Assembly (NCBI GenBank): GCA_028278335.1
Contig: JANQEN010000126.1
Location: 1 to 52,582, forward strand
DNA length: 52,582 nucleotides
Reading direction: 5' to 3'
From: Chitinivibrionales bacterium
Lineage (GTDB): Bacteria > Fibrobacterota > Chitinivibrionia > Chitinivibrionales > JANQEN01
Shown here one piece after another: positions 1 through 52,582 of this stretch. Under the pieces are notes generated by a model, which did no database searches, had not been told where the DNA came from, and saw nothing but the letters and a program-made list of their open reading frames with translations. Position 1 is the stretch's first letter. Every line of letters starts with the position of its first letter. Position numbers and translations under genes: made by a program.

Positions 1-118
1 AGACTTTCAGGCTTTTCGGCCATATCACCTTGTAGATATGCCCTTCAAAACCTTCAAGTCTTACTAAATCATAATCTTGCACTTCTGCATCTACTCCTAC
101 CGCATAATCTGGGATTAA
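1..118 (-). mobile_element. Partial copy (window-truncated) of a ~172-bp MITE-like element, reverse orientation. It ends with the terminal inverted repeat ...ctactcctaccgcataatctgggattaa.
   Basis: Bases 1-118 are near-identical to the reverse complement of 45780-45918. The terminal motif GCATAATCTGGG(A)TTAA matches the TIR of the full copy. Confidence 0.7.
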
Positions 119-132
119 CAATTTGGTTAAGC

Positions 133-170
133 AAAAAAAAACTCATCAGCTTGTATAGTACTGATGAGTT
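133..170 (-). terminator. Rho-independent terminator downstream of the csp gene.
   Basis: 10-bp perfect stem aactcatcag/ctgatgagtt (140-170). It is followed on the minus strand by a U-run (A8 at 133-140 on the plus strand), immediately 3' of the csp stop. Confidence 0.7.
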
Positions 171-206
171 ATCAAATCGATTTATTGACTAATAAATAAT
201 TATAAT

Positions 207-419
207 CTAACCGATAATTTTAACATCCTCTGCTTGAAGTCCTTTTTTTCCCTGAGTGATAGCGAATTCAACTTCCTGTCCCTCTTCTAAAGTCTTATAC
301 CCATCCATAGTGATGGATTTGAAATGGACGAATACATCGTCATCATCATCACGTTTGATGAAACCAAAACCCTTGGTAGAATTAAACCACTTCACTGTAC
401 CAGTTTGACGCTCTGACAT
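207..419 (-). CDS. Cold-shock protein, CspA family (S1-like cold shock domain).
   Basis: 70 aa. [12 protein letters not shown] (RNP1) and VFVHF (RNP2) motifs. Size typical of CspA family. Confidence 0.9.
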
Positions 420-539
420 AAAAAAACCTTTCGTAAATAAAAAACATGTAACTATAAGCTACAGGTAATATAGCTCGTATTTGATTTCTTTTGCAAGATT
501 TTTTTAAAAAAACCCTGATATTAATAAATTAACTGGGCC

Positions 540-995
540 CTATGTTCCCGTATGCCCAAATCCTCCAGCGCCTCGCTTTGTTTCAGAGAGCTTTTCCGTT
601 TCTTTAAAATCAACATCCAAAGGTACAGACATGGGGACCAACTGTGCTATACGCTCACCCCTTTTAATCTCAAAGGGTTCACTCCCAAGATTGATTAAAA
701 TAACCTTCACTTCGCCTCTGTAATCGGAATCAATTGTCCCGGGCGTATTAAGCACGGTCACGCCATGTTTAATCGCTAAACCGCTTCGTGGACGAACCTG
801 CACCTCCTGCCCTTGCGGAATTTCAAAACAGAACCCTGTCGGAACCAATAATCGCTCTCCCGGTTCTAAAAGTGCAGAGCTCTCAATTGCTGCGCACACA
901 TCACAACCACTTGATCCCTTGGTTTGTTTATGAGGAAGCGGGAGCCCTTCTGCATGAGCAAGTCGCTTTACTGCTATAAATTGTATCTTTTCCAT
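540..995 (-). CDS. dut: dUTP diphosphatase (dUTPase).
   Basis: 151 aa. Conserved dUTPase motifs: [10 protein letters not shown] and the C-terminal [10 protein letters not shown] motif 5. Confidence 0.9.
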
Positions 996-1009
996 TGGTT
1001 CACTCTTTG

Positions 1010-1045
1010 CTAAAATAAAAGGGGAGCGGAAGATGCTCCCCTTTT
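1010..1045 (-). terminator. Rho-independent terminator 3' of pnp.
   Basis: GC stem ggggagc...gctcccc (1021-1041). On the minus strand it is followed by TTTTATTTT. It lies between the pnp stop (1070) and the dut start (995). Confidence 0.6.
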
Positions 1046-1069
1046 GTTCAATAGTGTAACGTTTGTTAT

Positions 1070-3163
1070 TTACTTATTCTTGGCTAATGCTTTGATGCTC
1101 AAACGAGGCTTCCCACGATCAAAGCCGATTAATTTAACTTGAACCATGTCACCCACCTTTAGAACATCTTCCACTTTATTAACTCTGTGCGGTGCAAGTT
1201 CAGAAATGTGAATCAGCCCATCTTTGCCGGGCATAAATTCAGCAAAGGCACCAAAATCAACAATAGTCTTTACTTTCGCATCGTAAATGGCATTGAGTTC
1301 AGGTTCAGCAACAATACCCTTTATTCTTTCCAATGCCTTATCCGCACCAGATTTCTCAGTTGCAAAAACGCGAACTGAGCCATCATCTTCAATGGTGATA
1401 GTTGTATCGGTTGTTTCTTGGATTTCACGTATAATTTTACCACCGGGTCCAATAATATCGCCAATTTTTTCCTTGTCAATGGTAATTGTTGAAATACAGG
1501 GAGCAAACTTGGAAAGCTCTTTGCGAGGAGCAGGAATTGCAGCTTCCATCTTATCTAAAATGGTATGACGTGCTGTATGAGCTTTGGCAAGAGCATCCTT
1601 CATAAGCTCTGGAGTAATCCCATCAATCTTGATATCCATTTGGATAGCAGTGATTCCATCACGGGTTCCGGCAACCTTAAAATCCATATCTCCCATATGA
1701 TCTTCTGTTCCCAAAATATCCGTAAGAATCGCAACCTTTTCTCCCTCTTTAACTAAGCCCATAGCAACTCCAGCCACATGGGTTTTAATCGGAACGCCTG
1801 CTGCCATGAGTGAAAGAGACCCACTACAGACCGTGGCCATGGAAGAGGAGCCATTGGACTCCATTACCTCTGATACGATACGAATAGTATAGGGAAAATT
1901 TGCTTCTGCTGGGAGTATTGGGGCTAAAGATCGCTCCGCCAAATTTCCGTGACCAATTTCTCGGCGACTAACAAAGCCCATTCTCTTTGCTTCACCAACA
2001 GAGTAGGGTGGAAAATTATAGTGCAACATATAGGATTTATTGTACTCTGCTTGAATACCATCAATCCGTTGTTCATCCAATTTTGTACCTAAAGTAGTAA
2101 CACCAAGACTCTGGGTTTCCCCACGGGTAAATAGTGCAGAACCATGCGCTCGCGGTAGGATATCTAAATCGCAGGTAATGTCACGAATTGTATCACAGTC
2201 ACGCTCACCAATGCGAACACCACTTTCCAAAATAGTTTTGCGCATATCTTCCACTTCAAGTTCATGAAAGGCACCGGCAATAGCTTTTTCCTTTTCAGGA
2301 AATTGTTCAGCAAGTTGTTCCTGCGCTTCACTTAAGAGCTTATCCATACCAGCGTAGCGTTTCTTTTTATCACCACAAAAGCTCACTTCATGAATTTTGT
2401 CTTGTACAAGATCCTTAACTGCCTGGGCAATTTCTGGTTCTTCAACTTTTGCAGATTCAAAGGTTTTCTCGGGAACATCAAGCTTGCTGAGTAGCTCTTT
2501 TTGTAGGCCCACAAGTTTCTTAATATTTTCATGAGCAAAGGAAATTGCTTCAACGAATTTATCCTCTTCGAGCTCAAACGCTCCACCTTCAACCATCATA
2601 ATTGACTCTTCTGTGCCAGCAACGACAAGGTCTAAGGGGCTACTAGCTGTTTCTTCAATAGTAGGAAAGACTTTAAGCTTATCATCGACAATACCAACAC
2701 GAACACAGGCAACTGGTTGGCTAAAGGGAAGTTCTGACATACATAAAGAAACAGAAGCTGCAGTCACCGCCATAACATCGGCACTATATTTTTCATCTGC
2801 AGAGATTACTGTGTTGATAATCTGAACTTCATTAAAATAGCCATCAGGAAAGAGCGGGCGAATCGGTCTATCTACTATACGGGCACTCAGGACTTCACTT
2901 TCGCTTGGCTTTCCTTCCCGTTTAAAAAAACCACCCGGTATCTTGCCAGCAGCATAGGTCTTGGCGATAAATTCGACGGTGAGCGGGAAAAAATCGATCT
3001 CATCTCGCGCTTGGCCACCACAGGCTGTGGTTAACACCATTGTATCACCCATACGAATGACCGCGGAACCATTTGCCTGTCGGGCCATACGTCCGGTCTC
3101 TAATGAAATGGTTACACCATTCATTTCAAGTTCTGACGTTTGAATTGTCATTAATTTCTCCAA
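1070..3163 (-). CDS. pnp: Polynucleotide phosphorylase (polyribonucleotide nucleotidyltransferase).
   Basis: 697 aa. Two RNase PH-like domains, KH and C-terminal S1 domain. Typical N-terminus and conserved position after rpsO. Confidence 0.95.
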
Positions 3164-3260
3164 TTAAAATTGTGGGGAACACTCTAAAGCATTTACTAAT
3201 CCATCATGGAAGAGATGCTTGAGTCCTCTTAAACACATGTTAACGTTTTTAATGGTGCTA

Positions 3261-3530
3261 TTACTTTCTAATACCAAGTTTTTTAATCAGCGTTCTGTAA
3301 CCCTCAATATTGGTATCTTTAAGGTAGTCTAGCAATCCTCTTCTTTGGCCAACTAACTTTAAGAGGCCATAACGCGTATGATTATCCTTTTTATGTACCT
3401 TCAAATGGGCGGTAAGGTCATTAATACGCTGAGTGAGAAGGGCTATCTGTACATCTGTGTTTCCAGAATCATTTTCATTTGCACCAAATTCTGAAATAAT
3501 TTCTTTCTTACGCTCCTTTGTAAGAGGCAT
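3261..3530 (-). CDS. rpsO: 30S ribosomal protein S15.
   Basis: 89 aa. S15 signature [12 protein letters not shown]. Position upstream of pnp. Confidence 0.95.
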
Positions 3531-3537
3531 AACTGTT

Positions 3538-4473: not shown

Positions 4474-4475
4474 AC

Positions 4476-5333: not shown

Positions 5334-5336
5334 AGG

Positions 5337-6636: not shown

Positions 6637-6641
6637 TCGAA

Positions 6642-21496: not shown

Positions 21497-21841
21497 AGGC
21501 TTTGCTGATTTTTATTTAGGCGCCTACTCAGTGACTTAATTGAAAGAGTTTTAAAAGCATATGGGAGTTGTCCTCATTTTAGTGTTATGATTCAGATTGT
21601 TTGGGCGTCTTTTCAATTCATACATCTGTCATTTAAAAAATTTATTTGGGCGATCCTTCGCTTAAGCTCAGGCCGGGCCTGCTCCAGGCTCCGCTATCGC
21701 TTCGGTATTTTGGCTTGGCCAAAACACTGCTCTGCACCTTCCGCGTCCCTATCGCAAAAGATTAAAAGATTGATGAAGGTCTAACAGTATTGGTCATTGC
21801 GATCTATTACCTCTTTATAAATGCTATTGAGTTGCTTTTTA

Positions 21842-22096
21842 CCCCTTCAATCGCACCGCCGAATGGTTCAGAAAAACGCGAGGTGCTGTTTCACGGATAC
21901 CTTCCTGGTACCCGCCCCTTGGGCATCACTTCGTGATGTGCTCTCCGACCATCCCTGGTCTCCGAGTGAGTCTGCCCAGCAGAAGAGTTCAGCGAGCGTC
22001 TGAACCTGAGGCGAACAGGGCGATTGCGGGGTGTGTTTCGTTCATGTTTGCCATCCCTGGCAAACACCCTACGGGCTGTGCCTTCGGCACAGTGCT
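21842..22096 (+). repeat. GC-rich structured repeat element, copy A (candidate ncRNA / cis-regulatory RNA). It carries a ~90-nt insertion relative to copy B.
   Basis: 5' 30 nt (ccccttcaatcgcaccgccgaatggttcag) and 3' ~95 nt (gacctgaggcga...gcgattgcggggtgtgtttcgttcatgtttgccatccctggcaaacaccctacgggctgtgccttcggcacagtgct) are near-identical to the reverse complement of 33819-33990. Contains hairpins tgtttgcca/tggcaaaca and ctgtgcc-UUCG-ggcacag. The 5' end can pair with gcgattgcgggg. Confidence 0.6.
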
Positions 22097-22368
22097 CTCT
22101 AGCCATCCTGGCTTACGAGTGCTTACTTTTTTTTGCTGCAGACCGGGCAAAAATTACAATAGAAACAATGCCGCCAGGCATTGAACTACCTTACCCAGCA
22201 GAACGGTAGTGACAATAAAGGTGAGGCGCCTGCCAGTGCGCGAACTGGCGATCTTCAATGTTTTTTGTTTTTCCTGTCATCGCGAGCGCAGCGACGCGAT
22301 CTCGTAATCTATATATACATCGGGATTGCCGTGCCACACGTCTAATGACATGAACCATTTTAAGAATT

Positions 22369-33616: not shown

Positions 33617-33818
33617 AAAAATATAGCACTGTTTCTGACAGAATGAATGTACGTTTTGATTATACTATTCGTGTCTATAGTAATACATAGGTTCTTTAAG
33701 AAATTAATGCTAGGAGCATTTAGGTATCTGCTCATATTGTTTTTGCTGATTGTGTAGGATGGACAAGTAAACTTAATCATTTTTGCAGTTTATTAAGATC
33801 GTCGAGATACTGCCCGAC

Positions 33819-33990
33819 AGCACTGTGTCGAAGGCGCAGCCCGTAGGGTGTTTGCCAGGATGGCAAACATGAACGAAACACACCCCGCAATCGCACTGAT
33901 CGCCTCAGGTCCAGGCACTCGTTAAACTCGGCTTCGCCTCGAACAGCCACTCGTACTATTCTGAACCATTCGGCGGTGCGATTGAAGGGG
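33819..33990 (-). repeat. GC-rich structured repeat element, copy B (inverted relative to copy A).
   Basis: Reverse complement aligns with 21842-21871 and 22000-22096 of copy A. Same hairpins (tgtttgcca-tcc-tggcaaaca). Lies ~180 nt upstream of the SPFH gene start on the minus strand. Confidence 0.6.
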
Positions 33991-34049
33991 AATAAAATCA
34001 TCATTATAGATCGATTCGTTAATAAAACTAAAAAGAAGTACACCTATTA

Positions 34050-38573: not shown

Positions 38574-41500
38574 ATGAATGAAAAGACTTGCTGTCGGTGC
38601 ATTGAATATGATAAGAATCCATTAAGCCTGATATATCCTAGACACAGAAATTTTGTTATTCATGACTTCGCTCGATCTTCTGAGCCTTTAACAGAGAGTC
38701 AGAATACGGAGATTGTTGAACTACTGAAGCGGCATGATAATAGCATTCGCGATAAAATTGACAAGCGGTCTTTTACTCGAGAAAAGCTTGAGGTGGCGTC
38801 GGTTCTTGAGAAGAATGGATTCGCGACGATATCATCGACCTTACGGACCGCCATAGCCTGTAATGCCCCTGCCGGTCTTGCTCGTGCGGTAAATAATTTT
38901 CAAATTAAGTACAATGTAACAATATATGCATTGAATACGACCATAGATACTAGGCCGGTTATTTTGCTACTTTCAAAAAATAACCTTAATGTTTCAGAGA
39001 GAAAAAGATCTCTCCTTCACGAGGCCTTTGCTATTTCTGGGAACACCCATGATTTTACCTGTACAGTTGAAAATGACCTGTTAAACCAACTGCATGCCAC
39101 CGATATAGAGGCTCCTTCCCGCTCAACGAATTTAACAACCTACACCGGACGATACAAGTTGCTTATTTCAGAGCTTAAAAATCTTTTAGGTCGAGATCGA
39201 GAGCTCACTATAGCTGATTTTGGATGTGGATTCGACTCAGAAAAGTTTATTCCCGTTTCTCTATTAGAGACAAAACAGGCCTTAGACCCCAACGGTGATC
39301 GTCAGCTTAAGTTTATTGCCGAAGATCAGATTTATCCCTTTTATGTATTAGCCAGTGAAGGCGACATCCCCTCATTAATTTTTGATGACAATGGAAAATT
39401 AATTGCCTTTAAATCAACAGCCGGACATTTAGTGGACTGCCAAAAACAATTGAAGGTGTCCTATCGCTCTCATGATGTTCGAAAAAAAGAGCGCGCCTTT
39501 ATTATTAAGAACCGCGCACTCTACGAAGAGGTCCTTCAGGTGAAATTGGACACGCTTAAGGAAATACGCCCAGAAGTCAAGGTAGAGCTGCCCAAGTATA
39601 AATTGATAAAAGACCCGCTTCTTAATGTCATTAAAGAGGGGGTTGATTTTGTCTATGATAGTGCCTTTGGCATTAGCAAAAAAGAGTCGATTGATGTGGG
39701 CATTGTTTATAACGTGTTTTTACACTACTCTGCCCATGAGGCCCATAAATTCATTAAGATCATGTCTCCCCAAATAAAAGAGGGGGGGTATCTAATTGTC
39801 GGTGAAATTCTTGACTACGGAAAAGAGTCAGTAAAAGAAGAGGTCATGGTTTTCAAAAAGGAGAACGGACACCTTAGACGTTATGAGTTTATTTTTTGGG
39901 TTAAACCCGGTTTTGACGAACGACCGGTTGTCCTCTCCAATTGTAATGCCTGTATAACGCCGCACCAATACGAAAAGCTGAGCAACTTTTTTAGAACAAA
40001 AGAGTATTATGATTCTGGTGAAATCCTAGGATATGAGACCTTCAATCCTCGAGCGGTTGTCGAGGACCTTCGCAGACGTCTTGGTATTGTTGCCTTGGTG
40101 CATGAAACCGATGCGGTATTGATAGAATTTGATTCACAGGGAAAATTAAAAAAGCTTCCCGAGCATGCCAGTTCAAAGGAGGTGCCAAAATTAAATGTCT
40201 CGATAAAAGCAATCCGACGATGGAAAGAGCGCAATAGAAAGCGCCCCATTGATGATGCCTACATCCGAGAACTGAAACGGATCACCATGGATCTCTACAA
40301 TCATAACCGGATTTATCGATTGCCTATTGGGCAACGAATGATATTTTCTCGTATTGTTTTTAACCGAAAAGACTTTCCTGTAGTCAATGCTGCGGTCTCT
40401 TCAATTTTTCGAACACTTACGGCTAAGGATTGCTCCTGTAAAATTGATCCAAAAAAGACACTCCCCATTATCCCACCTGAAGCCTATCATATCCTGGCAA
40501 ACAGGCTCTCAGTTTACGAAGGGCAGTGCTCCATGGAAGATAACAGAACTATTCGATTTCTGCTCAATGTGATTATATTCGACTTTATCCGTGTGGGCGA
40601 AAAGAGAGTTGCCGAACTTCTTTGGCTAATTGATGAGATAGAAAAGGAGCTTGCAGAACCAGGAACAGGAAAACTCCCGGTAATCATTGCAATGCAGGAC
40701 CTTCATGGTGGATCTCGACGAGCTCTTGCTCTTATTGGGCATGCCATGGGACTTCATAAAAATATTTACCACCAGGTCCATAATATTGACGACTTAAAGC
40801 TGGCCTTAGAGGAGCAGGATATCAATATTCGAAATATGGATATTCGCTTTATTGGTATGAATGATAAATATGATCGTGGAGAGGATCCCAGTGGTGTCTT
40901 TGGTGTTGTCGAGTGGTTGCGCAATTTACGAAAGGCAAAACCCTTCGTGGGTAACCATGATTTCTGGCGCCTCATATCTGTTCTTGGTGTACATCTGGTT
41001 CCTGGTGTGTCAAAAGAGAGAAATCATGGAATCGGTTATTGGTCAGAGGATGCTATGAAACATGCTGGATGGGGAACTATAGAGCTTGATCAGATAAACG
41101 AGTGGCGTTTTAACATCGAGTTAGAGCGAGTGAACACTGTTTTACAAGTCAATGATTTGGAACCGTTTAAGAAAATAGACATTGGGAAATTTAGGGCCAG
41201 CATTGATAAGGAGATGAAGGAAATTAAAAAGCTCAATGCTGATATCAGACGTCACAATGAGCTACATAAAGATGATCCTACCTATCAACGTAAAGAGGAA
41301 CACCCTCTTCCCAATATTTTTATCCAAACATTGGATTATTTGCGTACCCAGCATGTGCATACCAATACAAAGATAGCGATTCTTAATGAGGATAAAAGAT
41401 TAAATATTCATCCAATAGAGTATCGAGAAGTCAATCTTGAAAATTATCGGGAGGATCCGGATATTATTGCTCGCACGCTCTGGGAGTTAAAAAACTTTCG

Positions 41501-42362
41501 TCTCTATTACATAGATGTTCTTGGTAATATTCATTTACATAATATTCTTCCAATGGACTTTGAGCATCGCCTAATTAATGTTGTCTACAAAGGGCGTCGA
41601 GGACTTGCTGCCTTAGAACTCATGCAAGAAGATGTTCGACAATTTTTTGAACATATGAGAACTATTCCCAATTCGGAAAGTTTTAGAATGCGTATGTGGG
41701 AAACATTGGGAAAGGCCTTTTTAGAGATCAATCGCTGGTATAGTGATAAAGAGGCTCATGCCAAACCAGTATCAGTAAAAAAATTTATTGACTGTGGCGG
41801 CCCAGCTGGATTCGGTGGCGAACTTATTGGTGCATCGGTCAAACAATTTGCCGACAGAAAATCTATGTTTCTCATGATCATTGGCCACAATGAACGTAAG
41901 AAATATGATGATCCTGACATGCCGGTTCCCTGGATTTATCTGTCTCCAGAAACAGATAGCGGCTTAGCAAACATCGACTATGAATTATCCCAAGGGTATA
42001 AAGACAGAGGTGCCTACCTCTCCTTTTTCCTCCGTGACAAGAAAGGAGAAATTACCGGTATTCGACAATGGGGGTTTCCATTGGCAGAAAAAGGTGCTGG
42101 GCAAAAACAGTCTCAGATTCGAAGAATTAAGGACATCACTCTTGAGGACATTAATGGGCTCGATGTAAAACAGATCGAGATGTTAAAGATGCTTAAAGAT
42201 GGGAAAAAGTTTATGACTTGGTACAGAAAAAAAGCCCTCAAAGAGATAGAGCGTCATCTCTCGCTTCTGGTGGAAGAGGCCGGAAAGGTTGGCCGGTTTG
42301 TCAAGGAAGAGAAGTTTTTAAAAATGCAAGTTGCCGTGTTTAAAAAACTGAGCGATAGTTAG
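38574..42362 (+). CDS. Large multidomain protein (1262 aa): methyltransferase-like motif region followed by a calcineurin-like metallophosphoesterase (PPP/lambda-phosphatase-type) motif set. Function unknown.
   Basis: Motif I-like IADFGCGFD (~aa 215). Metallophosphoesterase motifs QDLHGG, GMNDKYDRGED, GNHDFW (~aa 700-800). No P-loop or KxDG ligase motif found. N-terminal Cys cluster CCRC. Stop overlaps the helicase stop (TTAG). Confidence 0.55.
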   Translation: MNEKTCCRCIEYDKNPLSLIYPRHRNFVIHDFARSSEPLTESQNTEIVELLKRHDNSIRDKIDKRSFTREKLEVASVLEKNGFATISSTLRTAIACNAPAGLARAVNNFQIKYNVTIYALNTTIDTRPVILLLSKNNLNVSERKRSLLHEAFAISGNTHDFTCTVENDLLNQLHATDIEAPSRSTNLTTYTGRYKLLISELKNLLGRDRELTIADFGCGFDSEKFIPVSLLETKQALDPNGDRQLKFIAEDQIYPFYVLASEGDIPSLIFDDNGKLIAFKSTAGHLVDCQKQLKVSYRSHDVRKKERAFIIKNRALYEEVLQVKLDTLKEIRPEVKVELPKYKLIKDPLLNVIKEGVDFVYDSAFGISKKESIDVGIVYNVFLHYSAHEAHKFIKIMSPQIKEGGYLIVGEILDYGKESVKEEVMVFKKENGHLRRYEFIFWVKPGFDERPVVLSNCNACITPHQYEKLSNFFRTKEYYDSGEILGYETFNPRAVVEDLRRRLGIVALVHETDAVLIEFDSQGKLKKLPEHASSKEVPKLNVSIKAIRRWKERNRKRPIDDAYIRELKRITMDLYNHNRIYRLPIGQRMIFSRIVFNRKDFPVVNAAVSSIFRTLTAKDCSCKIDPKKTLPIIPPEAYHILANRLSVYEGQCSMEDNRTIRFLLNVIIFDFIRVGEKRVAELLWLIDEIEKELAEPGTGKLPVIIAMQDLHGGSRRALALIGHAMGLHKNIYHQVHNIDDLKLALEEQDINIRNMDIRFIGMNDKYDRGEDPSGVFGVVEWLRNLRKAKPFVGNHDFWRLISVLGVHLVPGVSKERNHGIGYWSEDAMKHAGWGTIELDQINEWRFNIELERVNTVLQVNDLEPFKKIDIGKFRASIDKEMKEIKKLNADIRRHNELHKDDPTYQRKEEHPLPNIFIQTLDYLRTQHVHTNTKIAILNEDKRLNIHPIEYREVNLENYREDPDIIARTLWELKNFRLYYIDVLGNIHLHNILPMDFEHRLINVVYKGRRGLAALELMQEDVRQFFEHMRTIPNSESFRMRMWETLGKAFLEINRWYSDKEAHAKPVSVKKFIDCGGPAGFGGELIGASVKQFADRKSMFLMIIGHNERKKYDDPDMPVPWIYLSPETDSGLANIDYELSQGYKDRGAYLSFFLRDKKGEITGIRQWGFPLAEKGAGQKQSQIRRIKDITLEDINGLDVKQIEMLKMLKDGKKFMTWYRKKALKEIERHLSLLVEEAGKVGRFVKEEKFLKMQVAVFKKLSDS

Positions 42363-45300
42363 TCAAAAAGGTTAAGCTGTACTTCTGTTGCAGCTTTCTT
42401 TCTTTTGTACTTTGATTCTTCAAGCTTTATGAGTTCTTGCTCTATTGATTCTAAAAAGGAACTTTTCTTCAATGCATGCTCCTGTCCAAAAAGAATTCGA
42501 CTTTTTGCATAGGTTAAGTAGAGGTTTGTTTTGGCTCGGGTCATACCAACGTACAATAGGCGTTTCTCCTCATCAATATTGCTGCGTTGACTTTTAAAAA
42601 GAGTGTAGGGAATCAAGCCTTCTTCACAACCGGCGATAAAAACAGTTGAAAATTCTAAACCCTTTGCAGCATGAATAGTCATGAGTGTCACCTGCTCTAA
42701 ATGTGGGCGGTAGCTATCAACACTATTTCCTAATTCTAAATGATTCAAAAAGTCTTCACAACTAGTTTCAAAACTTTGAGACCTTGAGATTAAATCTTCT
42801 ATCAACACAGTATTTTCTTTTGACGCATTTGGAAAGCATATCCTTTGGATCTCTTTAATTTTATCAGACACAGATTTCATACGTTTAATCTTAGCTTTAA
42901 TAGGAGCAAATTTTGAATACAGATCTGCATTACCCTTTGACAATATTTTCGTAAAAAAGGTGTCCTCTTTGTTGTGTGACGTCTTAAGCAAAGAAACAAT
43001 CGATTTGATAGGCTCTTTTTTCTGAAAAGGAAGATCCCCCACAGTCTGAAAAGGAATACTATGATCAAAAAAAGCCTTTTCTATGGCAGGCATCTGTCTG
43101 CTTATTCTACAAAGTACAGCAATGTCCGAAAGGCTTTCGACGCCTTGAGTCCTGTTTCCTTCTGTGATATTGCTATCCATAGAAAAGAATCGAAGTCCAC
43201 CCATCATCGCCTCAATTGACCTGGCAATATATTCAGCTTCACTCTTATCTGTATGTGAAGGTGCAATAATTATTTCGATTCCCCTTCCTGTTCCCTTTAA
43301 GAATTGTTGTTCCATAGATTGACTCTTGATAATTTGCCCCGATGCCTTAACAATTCTTTGGGTACAGCGGTAACTTTTCTCCAAACGATAGGTAATTGCT
43401 TTAGGAAAGTCCTTGGTAAAGGTATTTATAAAGGAGACATCAGCACCACGAAAGCCGTAAATTGCTTGATTTGGATCTCCAATAACGCAAATGTTGTTTT
43501 GGGTGTCCTGGACTAGTTGTCTAATAAGGTGGTATTGGGCATAGTTTATGTCTTGATACTCATCTATCATGATCCATGTATACCGATTTAGATATTCCTC
43601 TCTCACCTCTGGCGATTCCTTAAGAAGTCGCGCTGATTGATATATCAGATCATCAAGATCAAGGATGTTTTCTTTCTGTATCGTTTCTTCATAGCGTAAG
43701 ACGACCGATTGCACAGAGGGGTCTTTAATGGAGTCAACCATTTGCAGGTGCTGTTTCATGTGGGTGATTTCTTTTAAAGCCACTTCGGTTAAACCTTTAT
43801 TGTTTTCGCAGAGCGATGTAATAAGAGTCTGTTTTGTTTCATTGTCAATTAGTGAAAAAGGCCATGTCCTGTCAATAAGACGACACTTCTCTTTGAGCAA
43901 TGATAGCCCAAAGGCATGAAATGTACTGATTGTGAGGTGGGAGAGTTTTTTTGCATTTTTTAACACATCATCGATGCGACGTTTCATTTCTGATGCAGCT
44001 TTATTGGTAAAGGTCACCGCTAAAATGTTTTTTGGATTGACTGATTTGGACTTTATTAAATGAGCGATACGACAGGTTAGAACACGGGTTTTTCCTGTGC
44101 CCGGCCCTGCAAGGACAAGGGCCGGTCCTTGTCCATGTTGGGCAGCTTTCAATTGATTATCATTTAAGCCGTCCAAGATAGTTTTTTCTTTTTTAGATGG
44201 ATTGTTTTGCTTTGAAGAGATTTGTTCTTTTTTTTCGTCGACTTCAATAGCACGTAGCCGTCTATACTCGGATAGGTCAAAGTTGATAAGCTCTCTTTTA
44301 TTACTGTCCCGACTACCTGATGTAATGTCATCTGTAAACAGTGTGCTCTGGGAAGAAAAAGAGTCTAGGTCGCCTTTGTCAAAAACACGAATAACGCCAA
44401 ACTCTCCATCATATCCCTCTTGTATTAAAACTTCCCGATTCCTCATTCGACACACCGCTTCCGCAACCAAGGGTTCACCTTGTTGAGCGATTTCCTCAGT
44501 GGAAAGGTGAAGAAGAATATCAAACTCAGTACCATAGTTATTAATGAGAGAGAAATATTCTCTATTTATTCGTTTGGAATTAGGACCAACCCCACCATGA
44601 ATCTCTGATAATAACTCCTTTAGGGGAACGGTGGAGTAAAAGGGATGACGATTTTTTCGTTCGGTGATATCCTTGCGATCGGATAATTGAAGCACTCGAT
44701 TCATAACACCTATAGTGACCTCTTTTTCACAGACCGGGCACAGGTTACCATGACTCAACGATTCTACCGGGTTCCAGACAATGTTGCATTTCCGGTGACC
44801 ATCATAGTGATACTTTCCCTCCTGGGGAAAAAACTCGATGGTACCCAAGCAGAGATCTGGATCACCGCCCTTTAAAGCGTCGGTCAAAGCATAGTAGGAG
44901 AGATCCGTATTAAAAATGTTTGCCTCACGGCCTAACTTTTCCGGTGAATGGGCATCGGAATTGGAAATGAGAGCATAATTATCTAAGGAGCTGCAGGTCC
45001 AATTCATGGCAGGATCTGATGATAATCCGGTCTCCACAGCATAGATATGGCGGGCTAGATCATCATAACACTCTGCAATGGAGTCAAATCCAGATTTTGC
45101 ACCCAGAGCGGAGAACCAGGGTGTCCATATATGTGCTGGAATAAAGAAGATCTCTTCGGAAGCTTCCAATGCTATTTCAAGAAGGTTGCGTGAATCTAAT
45201 CCAAGAATTGGCCTACCATCGGAGGTAATATTTCCCCCAATGCCGGTTAGACTGTGTTGGATTTTTTCAACCGTTTCAAAATCTGGCGCAAGGATTACAT

Positions 45301-45628
45301 TATGCACCTTTCTTGTCTTGCCATTTTTTTTGTAGATTGAGCTAATTTCCGAGGACAAGATAAAACGGACCATTGAATGCTCGATCTCTTGGTTCTGAAG
45401 ATCACTATTATATATTGTATAGGAATCCTTCAATTTAAACAGTCCTGGCTCAGCAGGCTCCAATTTTTCTTTTAGCTCTGCTACCCACCCTGGATGAGTA
45501 AAGTCACCGGTGCCAACTACGGTGATTCCTTTAATTTTTGCCCAATAATCAAGATATTCTGGAACAAGCAATTTGCTTGTTGCAATGGAAAAGTGTGAGT
45601 GAATGTGCAAATCAGCTATGTATTTCAT
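42359..45628 (-). CDS. PHP-domain / UvrD-PcrA-family SF1 helicase fusion protein.
   Basis: 1089 aa. N-terminal PHP motifs (DLHIHSHFS...). CPVC zinc motif. Helicase motifs AGPGTGKT (Walker A), IDEYQD (motif II), VGMTRA (motif VI). Confidence 0.8.
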   Translation of the reverse strand: MKYIADLHIHSHFSIATSKLLVPEYLDYWAKIKGITVVGTGDFTHPGWVAELKEKLEPAEPGLFKLKDSYTIYNSDLQNQEIEHSMVRFILSSEISSIYKKNGKTRKVHNVILAPDFETVEKIQHSLTGIGGNITSDGRPILGLDSRNLLEIALEASEEIFFIPAHIWTPWFSALGAKSGFDSIAECYDDLARHIYAVETGLSSDPAMNWTCSSLDNYALISNSDAHSPEKLGREANIFNTDLSYYALTDALKGGDPDLCLGTIEFFPQEGKYHYDGHRKCNIVWNPVESLSHGNLCPVCEKEVTIGVMNRVLQLSDRKDITERKNRHPFYSTVPLKELLSEIHGGVGPNSKRINREYFSLINNYGTEFDILLHLSTEEIAQQGEPLVAEAVCRMRNREVLIQEGYDGEFGVIRVFDKGDLDSFSSQSTLFTDDITSGSRDSNKRELINFDLSEYRRLRAIEVDEKKEQISSKQNNPSKKEKTILDGLNDNQLKAAQHGQGPALVLAGPGTGKTRVLTCRIAHLIKSKSVNPKNILAVTFTNKAASEMKRRIDDVLKNAKKLSHLTISTFHAFGLSLLKEKCRLIDRTWPFSLIDNETKQTLITSLCENNKGLTEVALKEITHMKQHLQMVDSIKDPSVQSVVLRYEETIQKENILDLDDLIYQSARLLKESPEVREEYLNRYTWIMIDEYQDINYAQYHLIRQLVQDTQNNICVIGDPNQAIYGFRGADVSFINTFTKDFPKAITYRLEKSYRCTQRIVKASGQIIKSQSMEQQFLKGTGRGIEIIIAPSHTDKSEAEYIARSIEAMMGGLRFFSMDSNITEGNRTQGVESLSDIAVLCRISRQMPAIEKAFFDHSIPFQTVGDLPFQKKEPIKSIVSLLKTSHNKEDTFFTKILSKGNADLYSKFAPIKAKIKRMKSVSDKIKEIQRICFPNASKENTVLIEDLISRSQSFETSCEDFLNHLELGNSVDSYRPHLEQVTLMTIHAAKGLEFSTVFIAGCEEGLIPYTLFKSQRSNIDEEKRLLYVGMTRAKTNLYLTYAKSRILFGQEHALKKSSFLESIEQELIKLEESKYKRKKAATEVQLNLFD

Positions 45629-45746: not shown

Positions 45747-45918
45747 TTAACCCAGATTATGCAGTAGGAGTAGATACAGAAGTGCAAGATTATGATTTAG
45801 TAAGACTTGAAGGTTTTGAAGGGCATATCTACAAGGTGATATGGCCGAAAGGCCTGAAAGTCTTAATGGGCATAGGATTGTGTTTCTGCGCTATTTCCTA
45901 TTGCATAATCTGGGTTAA
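45747..45918 (+). mobile_element. Complete MITE-like element (~172 bp) with ~23-bp terminal inverted repeats TTAACCCAGATTATGCA(G/A)TAGGA.
   Basis: Left TIR 45747-45769. Right TIR 45896-45918 (reverse complement). Internal sequence repeated at 1-118 (inverted) and 52475-52582 (direct). Flanked by TTAA. Confidence 0.75.
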
Positions 45919-46233
45919 AGGAAATGTAAAATGTTTTTGCTTTAAATTAAAAATTGAATTAAATATTGACAAAATCGAATGTAAAATATAAGCCCCATTT
46001 GCTACACTTTTTAGGGTTATTCTCGGGTTTTTTATTCTCCCACAGAATACAATATGTTGGTTTACTAAAATTAAACTAGCCAATATGGTGTGTAACAGCC
46101 TAAAAATGGACAAGTTAGAAATTAATAAAAAAAAAGTGATTTTTTTATTGTCATTTTTTGCAATTAATGTATAATAAATTTGATCATAAATTTGAAAATA
46201 TTGTTTATTTTTTTTCTAACATTTTGATACAAA

Positions 46234-47121
46234 ATGTACCCTTCATCAGAAAGGATGTATGACGTGATATCCACAGTCAGAAGTCATTCAAGCTCAGAAG
46301 AGAACTCCCTTTCAATCTACCTAAAAGAGATAGGAAAAAATGAAAAACTTTCACCTGCCGCAGAAGCTGAAGTGGCAGAAAAAATCCATACCGGTGATAA
46401 AAGAGCGTTAGACACACTGATTAAGGCAAATTTACGGTTTGTTGTGAGTGTTGCCAGAAACTATCAAAATCAAGGGCTACCGTTGACCGATTTGATCAAC
46501 GAGGGGAATCTTGGCCTTATTAGGGCGGCAAAGCGCTTTGATGAGAAGAAGAATTTTAAATTCATCTCCTATGCTGTTTGGTGGATTAGACAGGCAATTT
46601 TACAAACACTATCAGAACACTCAAGAATTATCAAACTACCTCTCAATCGGGTAAATACTATTCATAAAATTGGTAAAGCTCAAGGACGATTGGAGCAAAG
46701 ATTAAAGCGTCTACCAAACAACGAAGAGTTAGCCCAAGAGTTAAACATTCAGGAAAAAGACATTAATGAAACGATAAAAATTGGCAATAGCCATATCTCA
46801 CTAGATGCGCCCATGCTTGAAGACCAAGACTCAAAGTTATTGGATATTCTGATCGATAAGAATCAAGAGCAACCTGATGAGTGGGTAATGGATAATGCCT
46901 TTAAGCGAGATGTGGATAAAACGCTCAGTGTTTTAACTGAACGAGAGCGACAAGTTATAGAGATGTATTTTGGCATCGGGGATCAAAGCGTTCATACCTT
47001 GGAGGAGATTGGCAACCGATTTAGCCTAACCCGCGAACGGGCTCGGCAAATAAAAGAGAAAGCTATTAACAGACTTCGTTGCTCGATCAACTCTAAAACA
47101 CTAATGGCCTATCGCTCGTAA
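46234..47121 (+). CDS. RNA polymerase sigma-70 family factor (compact, regions 2-4; RpoS/RpoH/FliA-sized).
   Basis: 295 aa. Region 2 LIKANLRFVVSVARNYQ...GNLGLIRAAKRFD. 2.4 YAVWWIRQAI. Region 4 HTH LEEIGNRFSLTRERARQIKEKAINRLR. Confidence 0.8.
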   Translation: MYPSSERMYDVISTVRSHSSSEENSLSIYLKEIGKNEKLSPAAEAEVAEKIHTGDKRALDTLIKANLRFVVSVARNYQNQGLPLTDLINEGNLGLIRAAKRFDEKKNFKFISYAVWWIRQAILQTLSEHSRIIKLPLNRVNTIHKIGKAQGRLEQRLKRLPNNEELAQELNIQEKDINETIKIGNSHISLDAPMLEDQDSKLLDILIDKNQEQPDEWVMDNAFKRDVDKTLSVLTERERQVIEMYFGIGDQSVHTLEEIGNRFSLTRERARQIKEKAINRLRCSINSKTLMAYRS

Positions 47122-47210: not shown

Positions 47211-47300
47211 TGTTTTGGCAGCAGAAGAAATTTTTGCCTAATTAACAGAGAAATTTATTTTACTATAAAAATATTTCATCCTTAAAGAGGATCACCTATT

Positions 47301-48032: not shown

Positions 48033-48064
48033 TCAACACAAACCCGGCACACTGGTTTTGTAAT

Positions 48065-49030: not shown

Positions 49031-49636
49031 TTGTTGAATTATCGAACTTTGAACATCACCGAACAAGAAACGCAAGAAGATCCCTGGTCATTATTTGAGA
49101 AAAAATTGGAAGAGACTCTTACCAAATCAGAAAACTATATTGCTCTCCATTTAGTTGATAAAATGGGTGCGGGATTACCCCTTTTAGAATGGTTAGAGGG
49201 GTGGCATAAAAAATATATCAAAACAGGAAAGTACATCTATATTGTTCCTGCCAATGAGCAGCAATATGAATCATTAGAATTCTCGCCACCGGACAAAGAA
49301 TTTAACTATGTCTCCTCGGTTGAAGAGCTGGATGAGATATTTAATTCTATCCCAAAAAAAGAGGTAAAACAGGAAAAAAAGGAAGCACCACCAGTTCCAG
49401 AAAAGAAAACGTTAAGCCAGGAAATAGAAGCAACTTTTGCAGATGTCGAGTCAGAAGAAGAGACCGAAGTCGTCTATGTTTCTCCTGGTGATACTGTAGC
49501 CATTGCTGGGGAGTATTCCTGTCTGGGATGTGGATCTGTTAGAATGTGGATGAAGGGTAAAGAAATTACCACTTGTCAGAATCCGGAATGTTTTCATCCT
49601 GACAAGGGTTGGAAATTGGACTTCGATCTTTTTTAA
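49031..49636 (+). CDS. Hypothetical acidic protein with C-terminal CxxC...CxxC zinc-ribbon (start uncertain; TTG in ORF track).
   Basis: 201 aa. Glu/Lys-rich linker. CLGCGS...CQNPEC at the C-terminus. Confidence 0.4.
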   Translation: MLNYRTLNITEQETQEDPWSLFEKKLEETLTKSENYIALHLVDKMGAGLPLLEWLEGWHKKYIKTGKYIYIVPANEQQYESLEFSPPDKEFNYVSSVEELDEIFNSIPKKEVKQEKKEAPPVPEKKTLSQEIEATFADVESEEETEVVYVSPGDTVAIAGEYSCLGCGSVRMWMKGKEITTCQNPECFHPDKGWKLDFDLF

Positions 49637-49654
49637 AAGGTAATAAAGAGCTAT

Positions 49655-50560
49655 ATGAATTGGGGTGATAAGATTGTAATTTCTGTTGGCGGTGGTAAAG
49701 GCGGCATTGGAAAAAGTTGCTTTTCTGGAAACCTTGGCACAACGCTTGCCCAATCAGGAAAAAAAGTTGTACTTGTTGATGCTGATCTCGGTGCAGCTAA
49801 TTTACATACTATAACCGGTGTTTCATACCCACAAAAAACATTAAAAGATTTCATTAACAAAAAATATCGTCACCTGGAAGATGTCCTTTTAGAAACACCC
49901 TATCCAAATTTGAGGCTCTTAAGCTCTGCCAGTGATATTCTTTCGCTCTCCTCCCCAACCTATAAGGAACGTCAAAAGTTGATTTATGAGATACAGCGTT
50001 TGGATACTGACGTTATCATTTTTGACATCGCTGCGGGAACCCATCAACGAGCTATTGATTTTTTCACCCTTGCGCCTCTAGGTATTATTATCATTCAACC
50101 GGTATTAACCTCATTAGAAAATGCCTACTCCTTTCTTAAAAATTTACTTATTAGACATTTACTAAGGATATTTTTTAAGCACAAAGAGGTAAAATCACTT
50201 ATCCTTAAAGCCGGTGACCCTCGTAGTCCAGACAACCCTATGGAGCTGAATGATTTATTGAAAATACTCGAGGAAAAGGACCCAAAAAAGGTTCAGGAAT
50301 TCCGAAAACAATTTATTGATATTGGCAATAAGTTTTTTATTGTCTGTAATGGAATTAAATCGCCAAGCCAATCAATTATTTCCGAAAAATTCGCCAAGAT
50401 TGCAAAACGATATTTAACACTCAACATTACCGTATTAGGCAATTTGCCCTATGAAGTTGCAATGGATCGAGCGATTCAGGAGCGAACCCCCTTTGTGGTT
50501 AAAATTCCAAATAGTGGCTATGCTACAAATATGCGGGAGATTATTAAACGGTTTGTGTAA
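49655..50560 (+). CDS. MinD/ParA-family P-loop ATPase (FlhG/FleN/MinD-like).
   Basis: 301 aa. Deviant Walker A VGGGKGGIGKS. Walker A' and B (VVLVDADLGAANL, IIFDIAAG). Confidence 0.75.
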   Translation: MNWGDKIVISVGGGKGGIGKSCFSGNLGTTLAQSGKKVVLVDADLGAANLHTITGVSYPQKTLKDFINKKYRHLEDVLLETPYPNLRLLSSASDILSLSSPTYKERQKLIYEIQRLDTDVIIFDIAAGTHQRAIDFFTLAPLGIIIIQPVLTSLENAYSFLKNLLIRHLLRIFFKHKEVKSLILKAGDPRSPDNPMELNDLLKILEEKDPKKVQEFRKQFIDIGNKFFIVCNGIKSPSQSIISEKFAKIAKRYLTLNITVLGNLPYEVAMDRAIQERTPFVVKIPNSGYATNMREIIKRFV

Positions 50561-50596
50561 CCAACCACCTGTCAACAATCATACACCTAAGGTCTT

Positions 50597-50902
50597 ATGA
50601 GTCAAAACAATTTTGTTATTCAAGACATCGTAACACATGTGTATAAAGAGCAAGACTACCATCAGAAAAGAGTGTTAACAGGAACCATACGACGGTTACT
50701 AAAAAAGGTTTGGCTTTTCTGTGTCCTACTGGTACTTTCGGCGGGGATCGGCTATTTTGCGGTCTATTTACCCGACTCTATTCCAAAAAGTGAAAATGTA
50801 TTAGGGTCGCTTGATATGTTAAATAAAATGCCTAAGGACCTTAACAGCCTCTCCGACTCTCAAAAAAAAGAACTTTACAAAAAGCTAAAGGAATTACAAT
50901 AG
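50597..50902 (+). CDS. Small single-TM protein.
   Basis: 101 aa. One TM (WLFCVLLVLSAGIGYFAVYL). Abuts the TPR gene (stop at 50902, next start at 50903). Confidence 0.35.
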   Translation: MSQNNFVIQDIVTHVYKEQDYHQKRVLTGTIRRLLKKVWLFCVLLVLSAGIGYFAVYLPDSIPKSENVLGSLDMLNKMPKDLNSLSDSQKKELYKKLKELQ

Positions 50903-51835
50903 ATGAGCGGCGGATTATTTATACTCATTACCCTTAGTACCTTTCTGCTTGGCGTTGCTATTGTTTTTGGCTTTTACTATTTCCGGTCTCAGCAAATTAT
51001 TAAGCTCAACAAAAAGGGACTTCAATTTAAAGATTGGGAGATGTGGGATGATGCTATTCGCTGTTTTCAACGGGCTATTGAATTAGATAAAAATCATGCC
51101 CTATCCTATTACAATCTTGGATTTGTTCTTTACTATGGAAAAAAGCTCATCGACGCAGCAATCGAGGCTTTCGAAACTTCTCTTACTAAGAATGACGCCT
51201 TTGCTCGTACCTACTACTCTTTAGGTCATGCGCAGTTTCATGGAAAAGGTGATCTTGAAAATGCTCGCGCTAATTTAACGAATGCCATCCATATCGATCC
51301 TGATCTTGCGCAGGCGCATACGACCATGGGGCTTGTGGAAATTAAAATGGAAAATTGGAAAAAGGCAATCGAACATTTTAAGACAGCCCTTTCCATTGAT
51401 GACTCATTAGAATCAGCGTATTGTAATCTTGCTATAGCACTTGTCTACCAAGGAAGAAATACTGAAGCCCGGGAAGTTTCAAAAAAATATGTCTCTTTAA
51501 AACCTGAATCAGCGCAGGCACGAAATAATATGGGAAATATCTATGGCTCCTGTGGGATGAAAGAGGAGGCTGTTAAGGAACTCTTAGTTTCTCGATCAAT
51601 TGATTCAAATGATTGGAATGTTCATTTTTGGTTGGGCTGTTTATGGCTTCAACTTGGTAATTATACTAAAGCAACATCCTCATTCCATCATGCAATTCAG
51701 TTGCATGGAGAATTTGGGCTTGCACACTACAACTTAGCACTCTGCTATGAGGGAAACAACCAAAAGACACATGCAAAAAAGCATATTGAAAGAGCCCTGG
51801 AGTTAGATCCGACACTGGGAGAAAATCTCATTTAA
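50903..51835 (+). CDS. TPR-repeat protein with N-terminal TM anchor.
   Basis: 310 aa. At least 6 TPR-like 34-aa repeats (W-LG-Y-A-F-P pattern). Confidence 0.7.
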   Translation: MSGGLFILITLSTFLLGVAIVFGFYYFRSQQIIKLNKKGLQFKDWEMWDDAIRCFQRAIELDKNHALSYYNLGFVLYYGKKLIDAAIEAFETSLTKNDAFARTYYSLGHAQFHGKGDLENARANLTNAIHIDPDLAQAHTTMGLVEIKMENWKKAIEHFKTALSIDDSLESAYCNLAIALVYQGRNTEAREVSKKYVSLKPESAQARNNMGNIYGSCGMKEEAVKELLVSRSIDSNDWNVHFWLGCLWLQLGNYTKATSSFHHAIQLHGEFGLAHYNLALCYEGNNQKTHAKKHIERALELDPTLGENLI

Positions 51836-51849
51836 GAGAAGGAGAAGAT

Positions 51850-52320
51850 TTGGGACTCATAGAAATATTGAAAGAATCTGAACTATTTAAGGGGCTTAAA
51901 GAGGAGGAGTTAACTCAAGTTGCTCAATTGGGAACCTTAAATAAGTATAGCTCTGGTGATAGTATCTTTGCGGAAGGTTCCACAGGAAAAGAGTTTTACA
52001 TTGTTGCCAGTGGTAGCGTAGCAATTAATAAGAATATTGCTGGGGGAAGAAAGCGAAACCTTAGTAATCTTATTCAAGGTGATATTTTAGGTGAGCTTTC
52101 TCTCTTTGACTCGCAGCCCCGCAGTGCTGATGCTGAGGTTATTGAGGATGCAGAGGTTGTGGTGTTCTCCAATGATGAGTTCAGGCAATTGCTTAAGAGT
52201 AATCTTGTAATCGCCTTTATTATTCAAACAAGGCTAATCAGAACGCTCTGTAAACGGCTAAGAAACACTGACGAGCTACTTAAAGAGGGTGTGATCTGGG
52301 GATTTAAAATCGACACATAA
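51850..52320 (+). CDS. Stand-alone cyclic-nucleotide-binding (cNMP/CAP-effector) domain protein without a DNA-binding domain.
   Basis: 156 aa. Beta-roll cNMP-binding pattern (GD.LGELSLFD..PRSA). Confidence 0.65.
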   Translation: MGLIEILKESELFKGLKEEELTQVAQLGTLNKYSSGDSIFAEGSTGKEFYIVASGSVAINKNIAGGRKRNLSNLIQGDILGELSLFDSQPRSADAEVIEDAEVVVFSNDEFRQLLKSNLVIAFIIQTRLIRTLCKRLRNTDELLKEGVIWGFKIDT

Positions 52321-52474
52321 GGAAAGCAACTTAAATCTAAAAATAGCAACAGGATTGTAAATCGCTCTAATCACATGAATCGTCCACGCAAAAATTGTTT
52401 TATCCTGTTTAGATTAAACAAGATCTAAAAGAATACAATTCTCTATCCATCGGTCTAATATATTTTAATCTCCA

Positions 52475-52582
52475 TTAAACCCTGATTATGCAGTAGGAGT
52501 AGATGCAGAAGTGCAAGATTATGATTTAGTAAGACTTGAAGGTTTTGAAGGGCATATCTATAAAGTGATATGGCCAAAAAAC
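52475..52582 (+). mobile_element. Partial (window-truncated) third copy of the MITE-like element, direct orientation.
   Basis: 52475-52582 aligns with 45747-45854 with ~6 mismatches. Begins with TIR ttaaaccctgattatgcagtaggag. Confidence 0.7.

Follow-up and report, generated by a model that had tools for sequence, protein, structure and literature searches.

A short TTAA-associated repeat family, probably a MITE, in an uncultured member of the Fibrobacterota

The best-supported reading of the DNA analysed here is that it carries a new MITE-like repeat family that is non-coding, associated with TTAA and recently mobile. The window, by which we mean the entire 52,582-nt stretch under study, is a whole NCBI contig and contains three copies (A, B and C); the total known is at least 11 copies (these three and eight others) on at least nine contigs. 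We consider it likely that the repeat is a MITE, i.e., a 164-bp non-autonomous DNA transposon devoid of a transposase gene, resident in an uncultured, Chitinivibrionia-like bacterium of the Fibrobacterota. It has the attributes of such an element: it falls below the approximate 600-bp limit and has no transposase gene, its terminal inverted repeats (TIRs) are conserved among copies, and its multiple copies are dispersed.

The repeat and its copies

A repeat search and blastn agree with an earlier note on this DNA, which had placed three copies in the window in both orientations: a truncated, inverted one at its start, a complete one, and a truncated, direct one at its end (Table 1). No further copy or fragment exists within the window. 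All three copies are located in AT-rich intergenic DNA. Their mutual identity of 93-97% bears out the proposal that they differ little and is in keeping with recent mobility; copy A departs from copy B at 3 of 113 core nucleotides, and copy C does so at 7 of 103. Copies B and C are indeed direct repeats, 6729 bp apart, and recombination between them would be possible.

Table 1. Positions of the repeat copies, their parts and the associated open reading frame in the window
Feature	Position	Strand	Details
Copy A	1..118	-	Cut by window start; 97.3% identity to copy B over 113 core nt; minus strand reads TTAA(118-115)-T(114)-CCCAGATTATGCGG... from 113 downwards
Copy B including TTAA on each side	45747-45918		172 bp; located by repeat search and blastn
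Copy B left TTAA	45747..45750	+	Putative target-site duplication
Copy B core, CCCAG...CTGGG	45751..45914	+	164 bp; imperfect palindrome; apical loop 45830-45837
Copy B left TIR tip	45751..45769	+	CCCAGATTATGCAGTAGGA
Copy B right TIR tip	45896..45914	-	CCCAGATTATGCAATAGGA, minus-strand reading
Copy B right TTAA	45915..45918	+	Putative target-site duplication
69-aa GTG ORF, judged spurious	45782..45991	+	Starts in copy B; stop 73 nt outside
Copy C	52475..52582	+	Cut by window end; 93.2% identity to copy B over 103 core nt; reads TTAA(52475-52478)-A(52479)-CCCTGATTATGCAG... from 52480

The 19-nt tip of copy B is found four times in the window at no more than one mismatch, with zero occurrences expected (100 shuffles). 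These are the four visible ends, all of which conserve a tip of the CCCAGATTATGC... type in inverted orientation. The TIRs had been put at 23 bp. Copy B does have a 23-nt TIR, the TTAA included, with one mismatch, but the inverted symmetry extends over the whole unit, a long imperfect palindrome whose RNA would form 70 pairs. Likewise, the claim that TTAA adjoins the TIR at all junctions is exact only for the two ends of copy B. Copies A (TTAA-T-CCCAG) and C (TTAA-A-CCCTG) have one visible junction each, offset by 1 nt; A strict TTAA duplication is seen at copy B only, and in the other two copies TTAA lies within 1 nt of the tip. The density of TTAA in the flanking intergenic DNA is only about 2-3% per position. 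Junctions reconstructed from other copies by back-translation are equally compatible with TTNAA and with TTAA.

Both ends of the window break inside the repeat, and a 3-kb Logan contig (L001) begins within copy B, exactly 31 nt in. The repeat thus explains the fragmented assembly, because contigs end inside it. A peptide search of 5.8 billion proteins returned nothing but nine short ORFs of 45-92 aa, no two of them on the same NCBI contig. Eight further copies are on eight other NCBI contigs, where they are visible only as short spurious ORFs; the repeat family is therefore dispersed, and all of the contigs that bear it probably belong to one assembly. About ten annotated “hypothetical proteins” of 45-92 aa are consequently artefacts of a single repeat. 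Neither of the two findings that the earlier note named as refuting its reading, a lack of dispersed copies or non-conserved TIRs, was made.

Outside this set, no member of the family turned up in 185k species genomes, JGI metagenomes, IMG/VR, plasmids or phages, and the description of it as novel stands for these collections. The core pattern TTANTAAGACTTGAAGGTTTTGANGG had no matches in species-genome and metagenome contigs, and the tip pattern CCC[W]GATTATGCNNTAGGN8CAGAA had none in viral and metagenome contigs. Searching with the repeat unit by blastn yielded nothing in plasmids and one 27-nt chance match in phages, and no related repeat was found on the contigs of two relatives. A protein search with BaxI_1, aimed at taxonomy and at an empty site, was uninformative: its 80 loci came from all phyla, were 54-63% identical and showed no synteny. 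The taxonomic placement was instead obtained from a PNPase search and from the contigs of the two relatives.

The surrounding genes are as previously described: a UvrD-type helicase, a sigma-70 factor, a ParA/MinD-like protein and csp. The suggestion that the insertions affect expression of the helicase, sigma-factor and csp genes is not supported by their positions. Copy B is situated between two candidate divergent promoters; copy A is just downstream of an 8-bp stem and T8 run, which we read as a putative csp terminator and which a terminator scan did not list; and copy C lies 155 nt beyond the gene before it. A Pfam scan of 37 ORFs of the window, with a few others of at least 80 aa outside this set, detected no transposase domain.

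Coding capacity, hairpin and the edge copies

A single frame stays open from one end of the unit to the other, which invites the reading that we are dealing with a small-protein gene in multiple copies, such as one for a type I toxin-like membrane peptide (MQDYDLVRLEGFEGHIYKVIWPK-LKVLMGIGLCFCAISYCIIWV). Five of the seven nucleotide differences in this frame are synonymous, RLEGFEGHIYKVIWPK is invariant in 10 of 11 copies (the exception being P0007), the last 19 residues form a hydrophobic C-terminus (KD 2.3), and AGGAG lies 11 nt upstream of the GTG. However, the sole ORF of the repeat is a 69-aa read-through. Its stop codon is outside the repeat and different in every copy, and its start varies from GTG in some copies to a flank-encoded ATG in others. 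With neither a fixed start nor a fixed stop to its ORF, the repeat is judged non-coding, as the earlier note had thought probable. Further, the subfamily of P0004 and P0006 shifts frame in the right arm, where the “protein” varies by about 12%, compared to about 3% in the left arm. The synonymous changes, including the “third-position” substitutions noted before, sit at unpaired positions of the hairpin (the apical loop or a bulge), and the C-terminal hydrophobicity is a consequence of the U-rich right arm. Pfam has no match for the 69-aa ORF, and no homologue longer than 92 aa is present among the 5.8 billion proteins. A small-protein gene is thus highly improbable; the small ORF of a type I toxin-antitoxin system was rejected on the grounds that the repeated unit does not contain its own start and stop.

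As RNA, the plus strand folds with an energy of -85.4 kcal/mol (z = -12) over its whole length and the minus strand with -59.4 kcal/mol, an asymmetry of 26 kcal/mol, and the plus strand has 12 G.U pairs versus 1 on the minus strand (binomial p = 0.0034). This 12:1 bias of G.U pairs over A.C mismatches suggests that the plus-strand hairpin, in the form of RNA or single-stranded DNA, was under past selection. The repeat might then have its main role as a structured RNA or hairpin (resembling ERIC, Correia or REP sequences, acting in mRNA stability or processing, or constituting small RNA genes), with transposition secondary or extinct. Consistent with this, the substitutions among copies A, B and C shun paired positions or keep pairing (of eight distinct differences, four are at unpaired positions, three keep pairing and one may break it), and the plus strand of all three copies is co-directional with the adjacent gene. 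In the other copies, however, the changes inferred from peptides comprise 10 that break pairs and 6 that preserve them. In a test of pairing conservation on such changes, transitions were 7 preserving to 3 breaking, alongside many transversions, and the result is not significant. With so many pair-breaking changes, individual copies resemble decaying neutral DNA, not maintained structures. Nor does Rfam 15 offer a match that reaches its gathering score anywhere in the window; even with the cut-off relaxed to E <= 10, the repeat gives no better E-values than 0.55 and 2.2, far below gathering scores. Copy B is outside both candidate transcripts, copy A is beyond the putative csp terminator, and the TIR tips and flanking TTAA are features of transposons. 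A primary RNA function is therefore improbable, and in any case it does not exclude the MITE explanation.

A different objection concerns the window's edges. IS elements present in many copies are typical points at which contigs end, and only 118 nt of copy A and 108 nt of copy C are visible; these two could be the terminal parts of complete insertion sequences running off the contig, with copy B alone a deletion derivative. Yet both match copy B through the hairpin apex (element positions 84-91) and continue 17-27 nt into the right arm, a junction specific to the short form; copy A spans the left arm and the apex and has 27 nt of the right arm. Because both cross the apex, we conclude that they represent the short form, and we find it scarcely credible that they are IS ends.

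Mobilisation and affinity to IS1380 and piggyBac

If the repeat is a MITE, a DDE transposase with its gene at another place in the genome would have cut and pasted its copies in trans. This enzyme would bind the CCC-tips and insert the element at TTAA-like, AT-rich sites, with a duplication of 4 bp (perhaps 4-5 bp). The unit probably arose by inverted duplication of one IS end, since its two halves pair along the whole length, and its transcription in the plus direction would give a hairpin of roughly 70 bp. PATEs derived from IS200/IS605 and REP/BIME sequences insert in a strand-specific manner 3' of a fixed tetra- or pentanucleotide. They are marked by subterminal hairpins and by the lack of TIRs and of a target-site duplication (TSD), a description that the repeat does not fit; such an origin was rejected in view of its long TIRs and the identical TTAA on both sides of copy B.

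For candidate partners, we read the termini of IS1380-family elements from plasmids, comparing five members and no other IS family. These were ISEcp1 (CCTAGATTCTACGT and CCTAAATTCCACGT), IS1678 (CCTGAATAATTCAT), IS1247 (CCCACATTTCCCAA and CCTGCATTCCCCAA), an IS1380-family element of Pseudonocardia (CCCGGATCCACCGA) and IS1380A (CGCGGAAATCTCAC); the corresponding terminus of the repeat is CCCAGATTATGCAG. The repeat termini fit all five elements over 8-14 nt, in a comparison with the IS1380 family alone. The repeat tip is identical to the left end (IRL) of ISEcp1 at 10 of 14 bases, and the termini of family and repeat alike begin C-C/G-Y-R-N-A-T/A. The size of the duplication is also similar, being 4 bp in IS1380A, 5 bp in IS1678 and the Pseudonocardia element, and 4 bp in copy B of the repeat; a direct repeat of 5 bp is on record for IS1247 (PMC3281130). 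In contrast, the IS1380 members have duplications other than TTAA (AGTCA in IS1678, GTAAG in the Pseudonocardia element and TCGA in IS1380A), whereas that of the repeat is TTAA, and the repeat is only 164 bp long and has no transposase; no cognate IS was seen. We tentatively favor an IS1380-family transposase as the mobilising enzyme, at a little short of an even chance.

The choice of TTAA evokes piggyBac, which has TTAA TSDs and CCC/GGG as the first TIR bases, and to which IS1380 transposases are distant prokaryotic relatives (PMC10140906). Copy B, which reads TTAA-CCCAG...CTGGG-TTAA, shares this likeness to the superfamily. On the other hand, piggyBac is eukaryotic and the host of the repeat is prokaryotic, no transposase of the piggyBac type was seen, and TTAA is exact at only one of three copies. 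The piggyBac tip, which we take to be CCCTAGAAAGATA, is dissimilar to the repeat tip beyond CCC. In an ambitious synthesis, the repeat would be the trace of a prokaryotic transposase of the IS1380 family that behaves as piggyBac does, recognising CCC...GGG tips and duplicating TTAA. Such an enzyme would connect IS1380 mechanistically with piggyBac, in a Fibrobacterota lineage that has hardly been sampled, and the plus-strand hairpin may in addition be kept by selection as a functional RNA or single-stranded DNA structure. We deem this combination unlikely. Should the partner turn out to be a transposase of the IS1380 family that is specific for TTAA, it would offer a useful prokaryotic comparison for the target choice of piggyBac.

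Comparison with known repeat systems

A 164-bp MITE will not surprise a specialist, as bacterial MITEs of such size and shape are common. To our knowledge, none has been described for a Fibrobacterota/Chitinivibrionia-like lineage, and the present family adds one to a phylum-level lineage with almost no description of mobile elements. Among established examples, MaeMITEa-h of Microcystis aeruginosa are 176-429 bp long and present in 20-240 copies (PMC2779907), and Anabaena sp. 90 has 147 MITEs (PMC3542288). The repeat shares with bacterial MITEs its shortness, the lack of a transposase, terminal inverted repeats, a flanking direct repeat and many dispersed, mostly intergenic copies. It differs from them in being palindromic throughout, not only at its termini, and in its sequence, which resembles nothing in the collections searched.

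The ERIC/IRU and Correia (NEMIS) sequences of proteobacteria are intergenic repeats of about 100-170 bp that form long hairpins when transcribed; their sequences are unrelated to that of the 164-bp repeat. The Rickettsia palindromic elements (RPEs) are palindromic repeats about 150 bp long in which one reading frame is uninterrupted. Unlike RPEs, for which insertion is in frame and into genes, copies A, B and C are all intergenic, and insertion of that kind was not seen. The likeness to RPEs resides in the unit itself: the core of the repeat and its TSD together measure 168 bp, or 56 codons, with one open frame.

A dispersed family of miniature inverted-repeat elements

The repeat in the window is a genuine MITE family; its sequence and host are new and its kind is ordinary, with hundreds of comparable elements in bacterial genomes such as that of Microcystis (PMC2779907). 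Its interest is slightly above routine, owing to piggyBac/IS1380-like ends (TTAA-CCC...GGG-TTAA) and a strongly strand-asymmetric hairpin spanning its whole length. As an earlier note had described, three copies are present: one complete (B) and two cut by the window edges (A and C). Alignments to B that start from the CCC tip show 3 differences over 113 positions for A and 7 over 103 for C. Four matches to the 19-nt tip, CCCAGATTATGCAGTAGGA, are present at ≤1 mismatch, one at the left end of every copy and one at the right end of B, with none expected in shuffled sequence; the terminal repeats are thus conserved among copies. Sensitive blastn found no further copies or fragments within the window.

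The family is also dispersed beyond the window, as that note anticipated. Among 5.8 billion proteins, the sole matches to the element's in-frame peptide are short ORFs of 45-92 aa: the window's own and P0001 and P0003-P0009, each of the latter on a separate NCBI contig of 14.9-99.8 kb. We infer that the nine repeat-bearing contigs represent one assembly, in which the copy number is at least 11. The window's own ORF is matched on a contig of exactly 52,582 bp; the window is therefore an entire contig, and both of its ends lie inside the repeat, which is the assembler behavior expected at a multi-copy sequence. The Logan assembly of SRR20820740 contains window DNA too; a 3-kb contig of that assembly, the sole other record of the organism, begins within B, exactly 31 nt in from its right end. 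P0004 and P0006 define a subfamily that is ~41 nt longer. Its ORF ends ...LPIA-stop, back-translated as CCTATTGCATAA-TCTGGG, i.e., the right tip in another frame. About ten public 45-92-aa “proteins” of this organism, these matches included, are the repeat translated into its flanks, and are annotation artefacts.

TTAA was proposed to adjoin the inverted repeat at every junction. This is exact at both ends of B (TTAA-CCCAGATTATGCAGTAGGAG...CTATTTCCTATTGCATAATCTGGG-TTAA), but A (TTAA-T-CCCAG) and C (TTAA-A-CCCTG) have a 1-nt offset. Because TTAA occupies only ~2-3% of positions in flanking intergenic DNA, its occurrence at 0-1 nt in four junctions is not due to chance. Junctions of other copies, back-translated from peptides, read TTYAA, YTNAA and YTNTA on the left and TTAAR, TTGAR and TTT(R)(R) on the right. 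With one complete copy in DNA form, these fit a duplication of either 4 bp (TTAA-like) or 5 bp (TTNAA-like).

Features of the window
Feature	Position	Strand	Remarks
Copy A	1-118	-	cut by window start
Copy B	45747-45918		complete; 172 bp with TTAA on both sides
Copy B core	45751-45914		164 bp
Copy C	52475-52582	+	cut by window end
Stem and T8 run after csp	133-168		8-bp stem; read directly from sequence
csp	207-419	-
pnp	1070-3163		PNPase
ORF	18566-21496	+	976 aa; no Pfam domain at E ≤ 1e-5
Second repeat	21836-22100	+	82-nt insertion
CRISPR-DR33 match	22331-22367	-	sub-threshold
CBAH/AAT-like hydrolase	22369
ORF	24572-25837	-	421 aa; no Pfam domain at E ≤ 1e-5
SPFH/Band-7 protein	starting 33616
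Second repeat	33816-33996	-
ORF	38574-42362	+	1262 aa; no Pfam domain at E ≤ 1e-5
UvrD-type helicase	42359-45628	-	~480-aa N-terminal region without Pfam match
Candidate helicase promoter	45680-45653	-	weaker
Candidate sigma-factor gene promoter	46148-46175		TTGTCA-16-TATAAT
Sigma-70 factor	46234-47121	+
BaxI, DUF4159, ParA/MinD-like, TPR, cNMP-binding genes	up to 52320

The hairpin and the open frame

The inverted ends, previously described as 23-bp TIRs, are present, but the symmetry runs beyond 23 bp: the two halves of the unit pair along its whole length. Folded as RNA, the unit forms 70 pairs at -85.4 kcal/mol (z = -12), and as DNA it reaches -37 kcal/mol (z = -8.8); the reverse strand as RNA folds much more weakly (-59.4 kcal/mol). 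Thirteen transition mismatches separate the arms, 12 of them giving G.U on the plus strand and one on the minus (binomial p = 0.0034). Neutral divergence of the arms should yield approximately equal numbers, and the split therefore points to past selection on the hairpin of the plus strand, in the form of RNA or single-stranded DNA. We regard this strand-asymmetric bias as a real feature of the family. The peptides of the other copies imply many pair-breaking changes, and thus individual copies appear to be decaying.

A single frame is open throughout the unit, its C-terminal half is hydrophobic, and 5 of the 7 substitutions that separate A, B and C within it are synonymous. This ORF was considered as a gene and rejected. 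Its stop codon is found beyond the repeat and is different from copy to copy; its starts vary, being an internal GTG in some copies and flank-encoded ATGs in others; one subfamily carries a frame shift; the 5.8 billion proteins searched include none above 92 aa that contains the peptide; and there is no Pfam match. The earlier judgment that it is probably non-coding is therefore upheld. The three third-position substitutions cited with that judgment exist (45832, 45835 and 45847), and they are located in the hairpin's apical loop and in an internal bulge. Among eight distinct differences between the three copies, four are unpaired, three are pairing-preserving transitions (A-U to G.U or vice versa) and one may break a pair. 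It is the hairpin rather than codons that accounts for the substitution pattern.

Neighboring genes and other features

The gene context given previously is correct: csp, the UvrD-type helicase, sigma-70 and ParA/MinD-like genes are all present. The remainder consists of ordinary chromosomal genes (rimP-nusA-infB-truB-ribF-pnp-dut, PBP1a, a Ser/Thr kinase, RtcB, hisHF), and no transposase domain was found in the 37 window ORFs scanned, a few other ORFs of ≥80 aa lying outside that scan. The stem and T8 run after csp, missing from the terminator scan because its loop exceeds the limit of 8, is read as a putative csp terminator. Copy A lies 15 nt past this T-run, B in the interval separating the best candidate promoters for the divergent helicase and sigma genes, and C 155 nt past the cNMP-binding gene. 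These positions leave the suggested promoter effects of the insertions unsupported. The element contains no hairpin-plus-T-run terminator; read-through transcripts would gain a long hairpin from it. Recombination would be possible between B and C, which are directly repeated at a distance of 6.7 kb.

A second, unrelated repeat is present in two copies of opposite orientation, with identities of 85-93% from block to block, and is GC-rich relative to the 41% GC genome. It is non-coding, as its overlapping ORFs are not homologous. It has moderate structure (z = -2.45) and no Rfam match, and ~200-270 nt separate each copy from a downstream gene on its own strand, the hydrolase or the SPFH/Band-7 protein. 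It may represent a leader or regulatory RNA shared by the two genes, or else a further mobile repeat. The weak Rfam match to CRISPR-DR33 (24.6 bits against a gathering score of 39, E = 0.008) is a single unit with no array, and is probably due to chance.

Host lineage and possible relation to IS1380 and piggyBac

The PNPase has no relative above 74% identity. Its named matches, at 67-70%, are Chitinivibrionales, Chitinispirillaceae or Fibrobacterota MAGs; two relatives at 73% lie on a Chitinivibrionales contig and a contig of GCA_024449895.1, both having the rimP...pnp-dut synteny of the window. Tip and unit are absent from these two contigs and from 1.29 Mb of other loci, the core pattern from one genome for each of 185,579 species and from JGI metagenomes, the tip pattern from JGI metagenomes and IMG/VR, and the unit from the plasmids and phages searched. 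On the available data, the family is restricted to this organism. No close relative of the organism has been sequenced, and its sigma factor and helicase are singletons at 90% clustering.

Termini of the window element and of five IS1380-family elements, the latter read from annotated plasmids
Element	Termini	Length	Duplication
ISEcp1	CCTAGATTCTACGT / CCTAAATTCCACGT	1656 bp
IS1678	CCTGAATAATTCAT		AGTCA
IS1247	CCCACATTTCCCAA / CCTGCATTCCCCAA	1671 bp	5-bp DR (PMC3281130)
Pseudonocardia IS1380-family element	CCCGGATCCACCGA / CCCGAATCCACCGA	1591 bp	GTAAG
IS1380A	CGCGGAAATCTCAC	1665 bp	TCGA
Window element	CCCAGATTATGCAG	164 bp	TTAA

The window element shares the start C-C/G-Y-R-N-A-T/A with all five elements compared, its tip matches the left end of ISEcp1 at 10 of 14 positions, and the TTAA duplication at copy B is inside the 4-5 bp range of the family. 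According to the ISfinder family table, “CC” termini combined with a duplication of 4-5 bp would, among IS families, point to IS1380. Judged from these termini, the chance that the partner transposase would be of the IS1380 family is, in our estimation, a little short of even. IS1380 transposases are regarded as the distant prokaryotic relatives of piggyBac, the hallmark of which is a TTAA duplication with CCC/GGG tips (PMC10140906; PMC10813416), and copy B displays exactly this combination.
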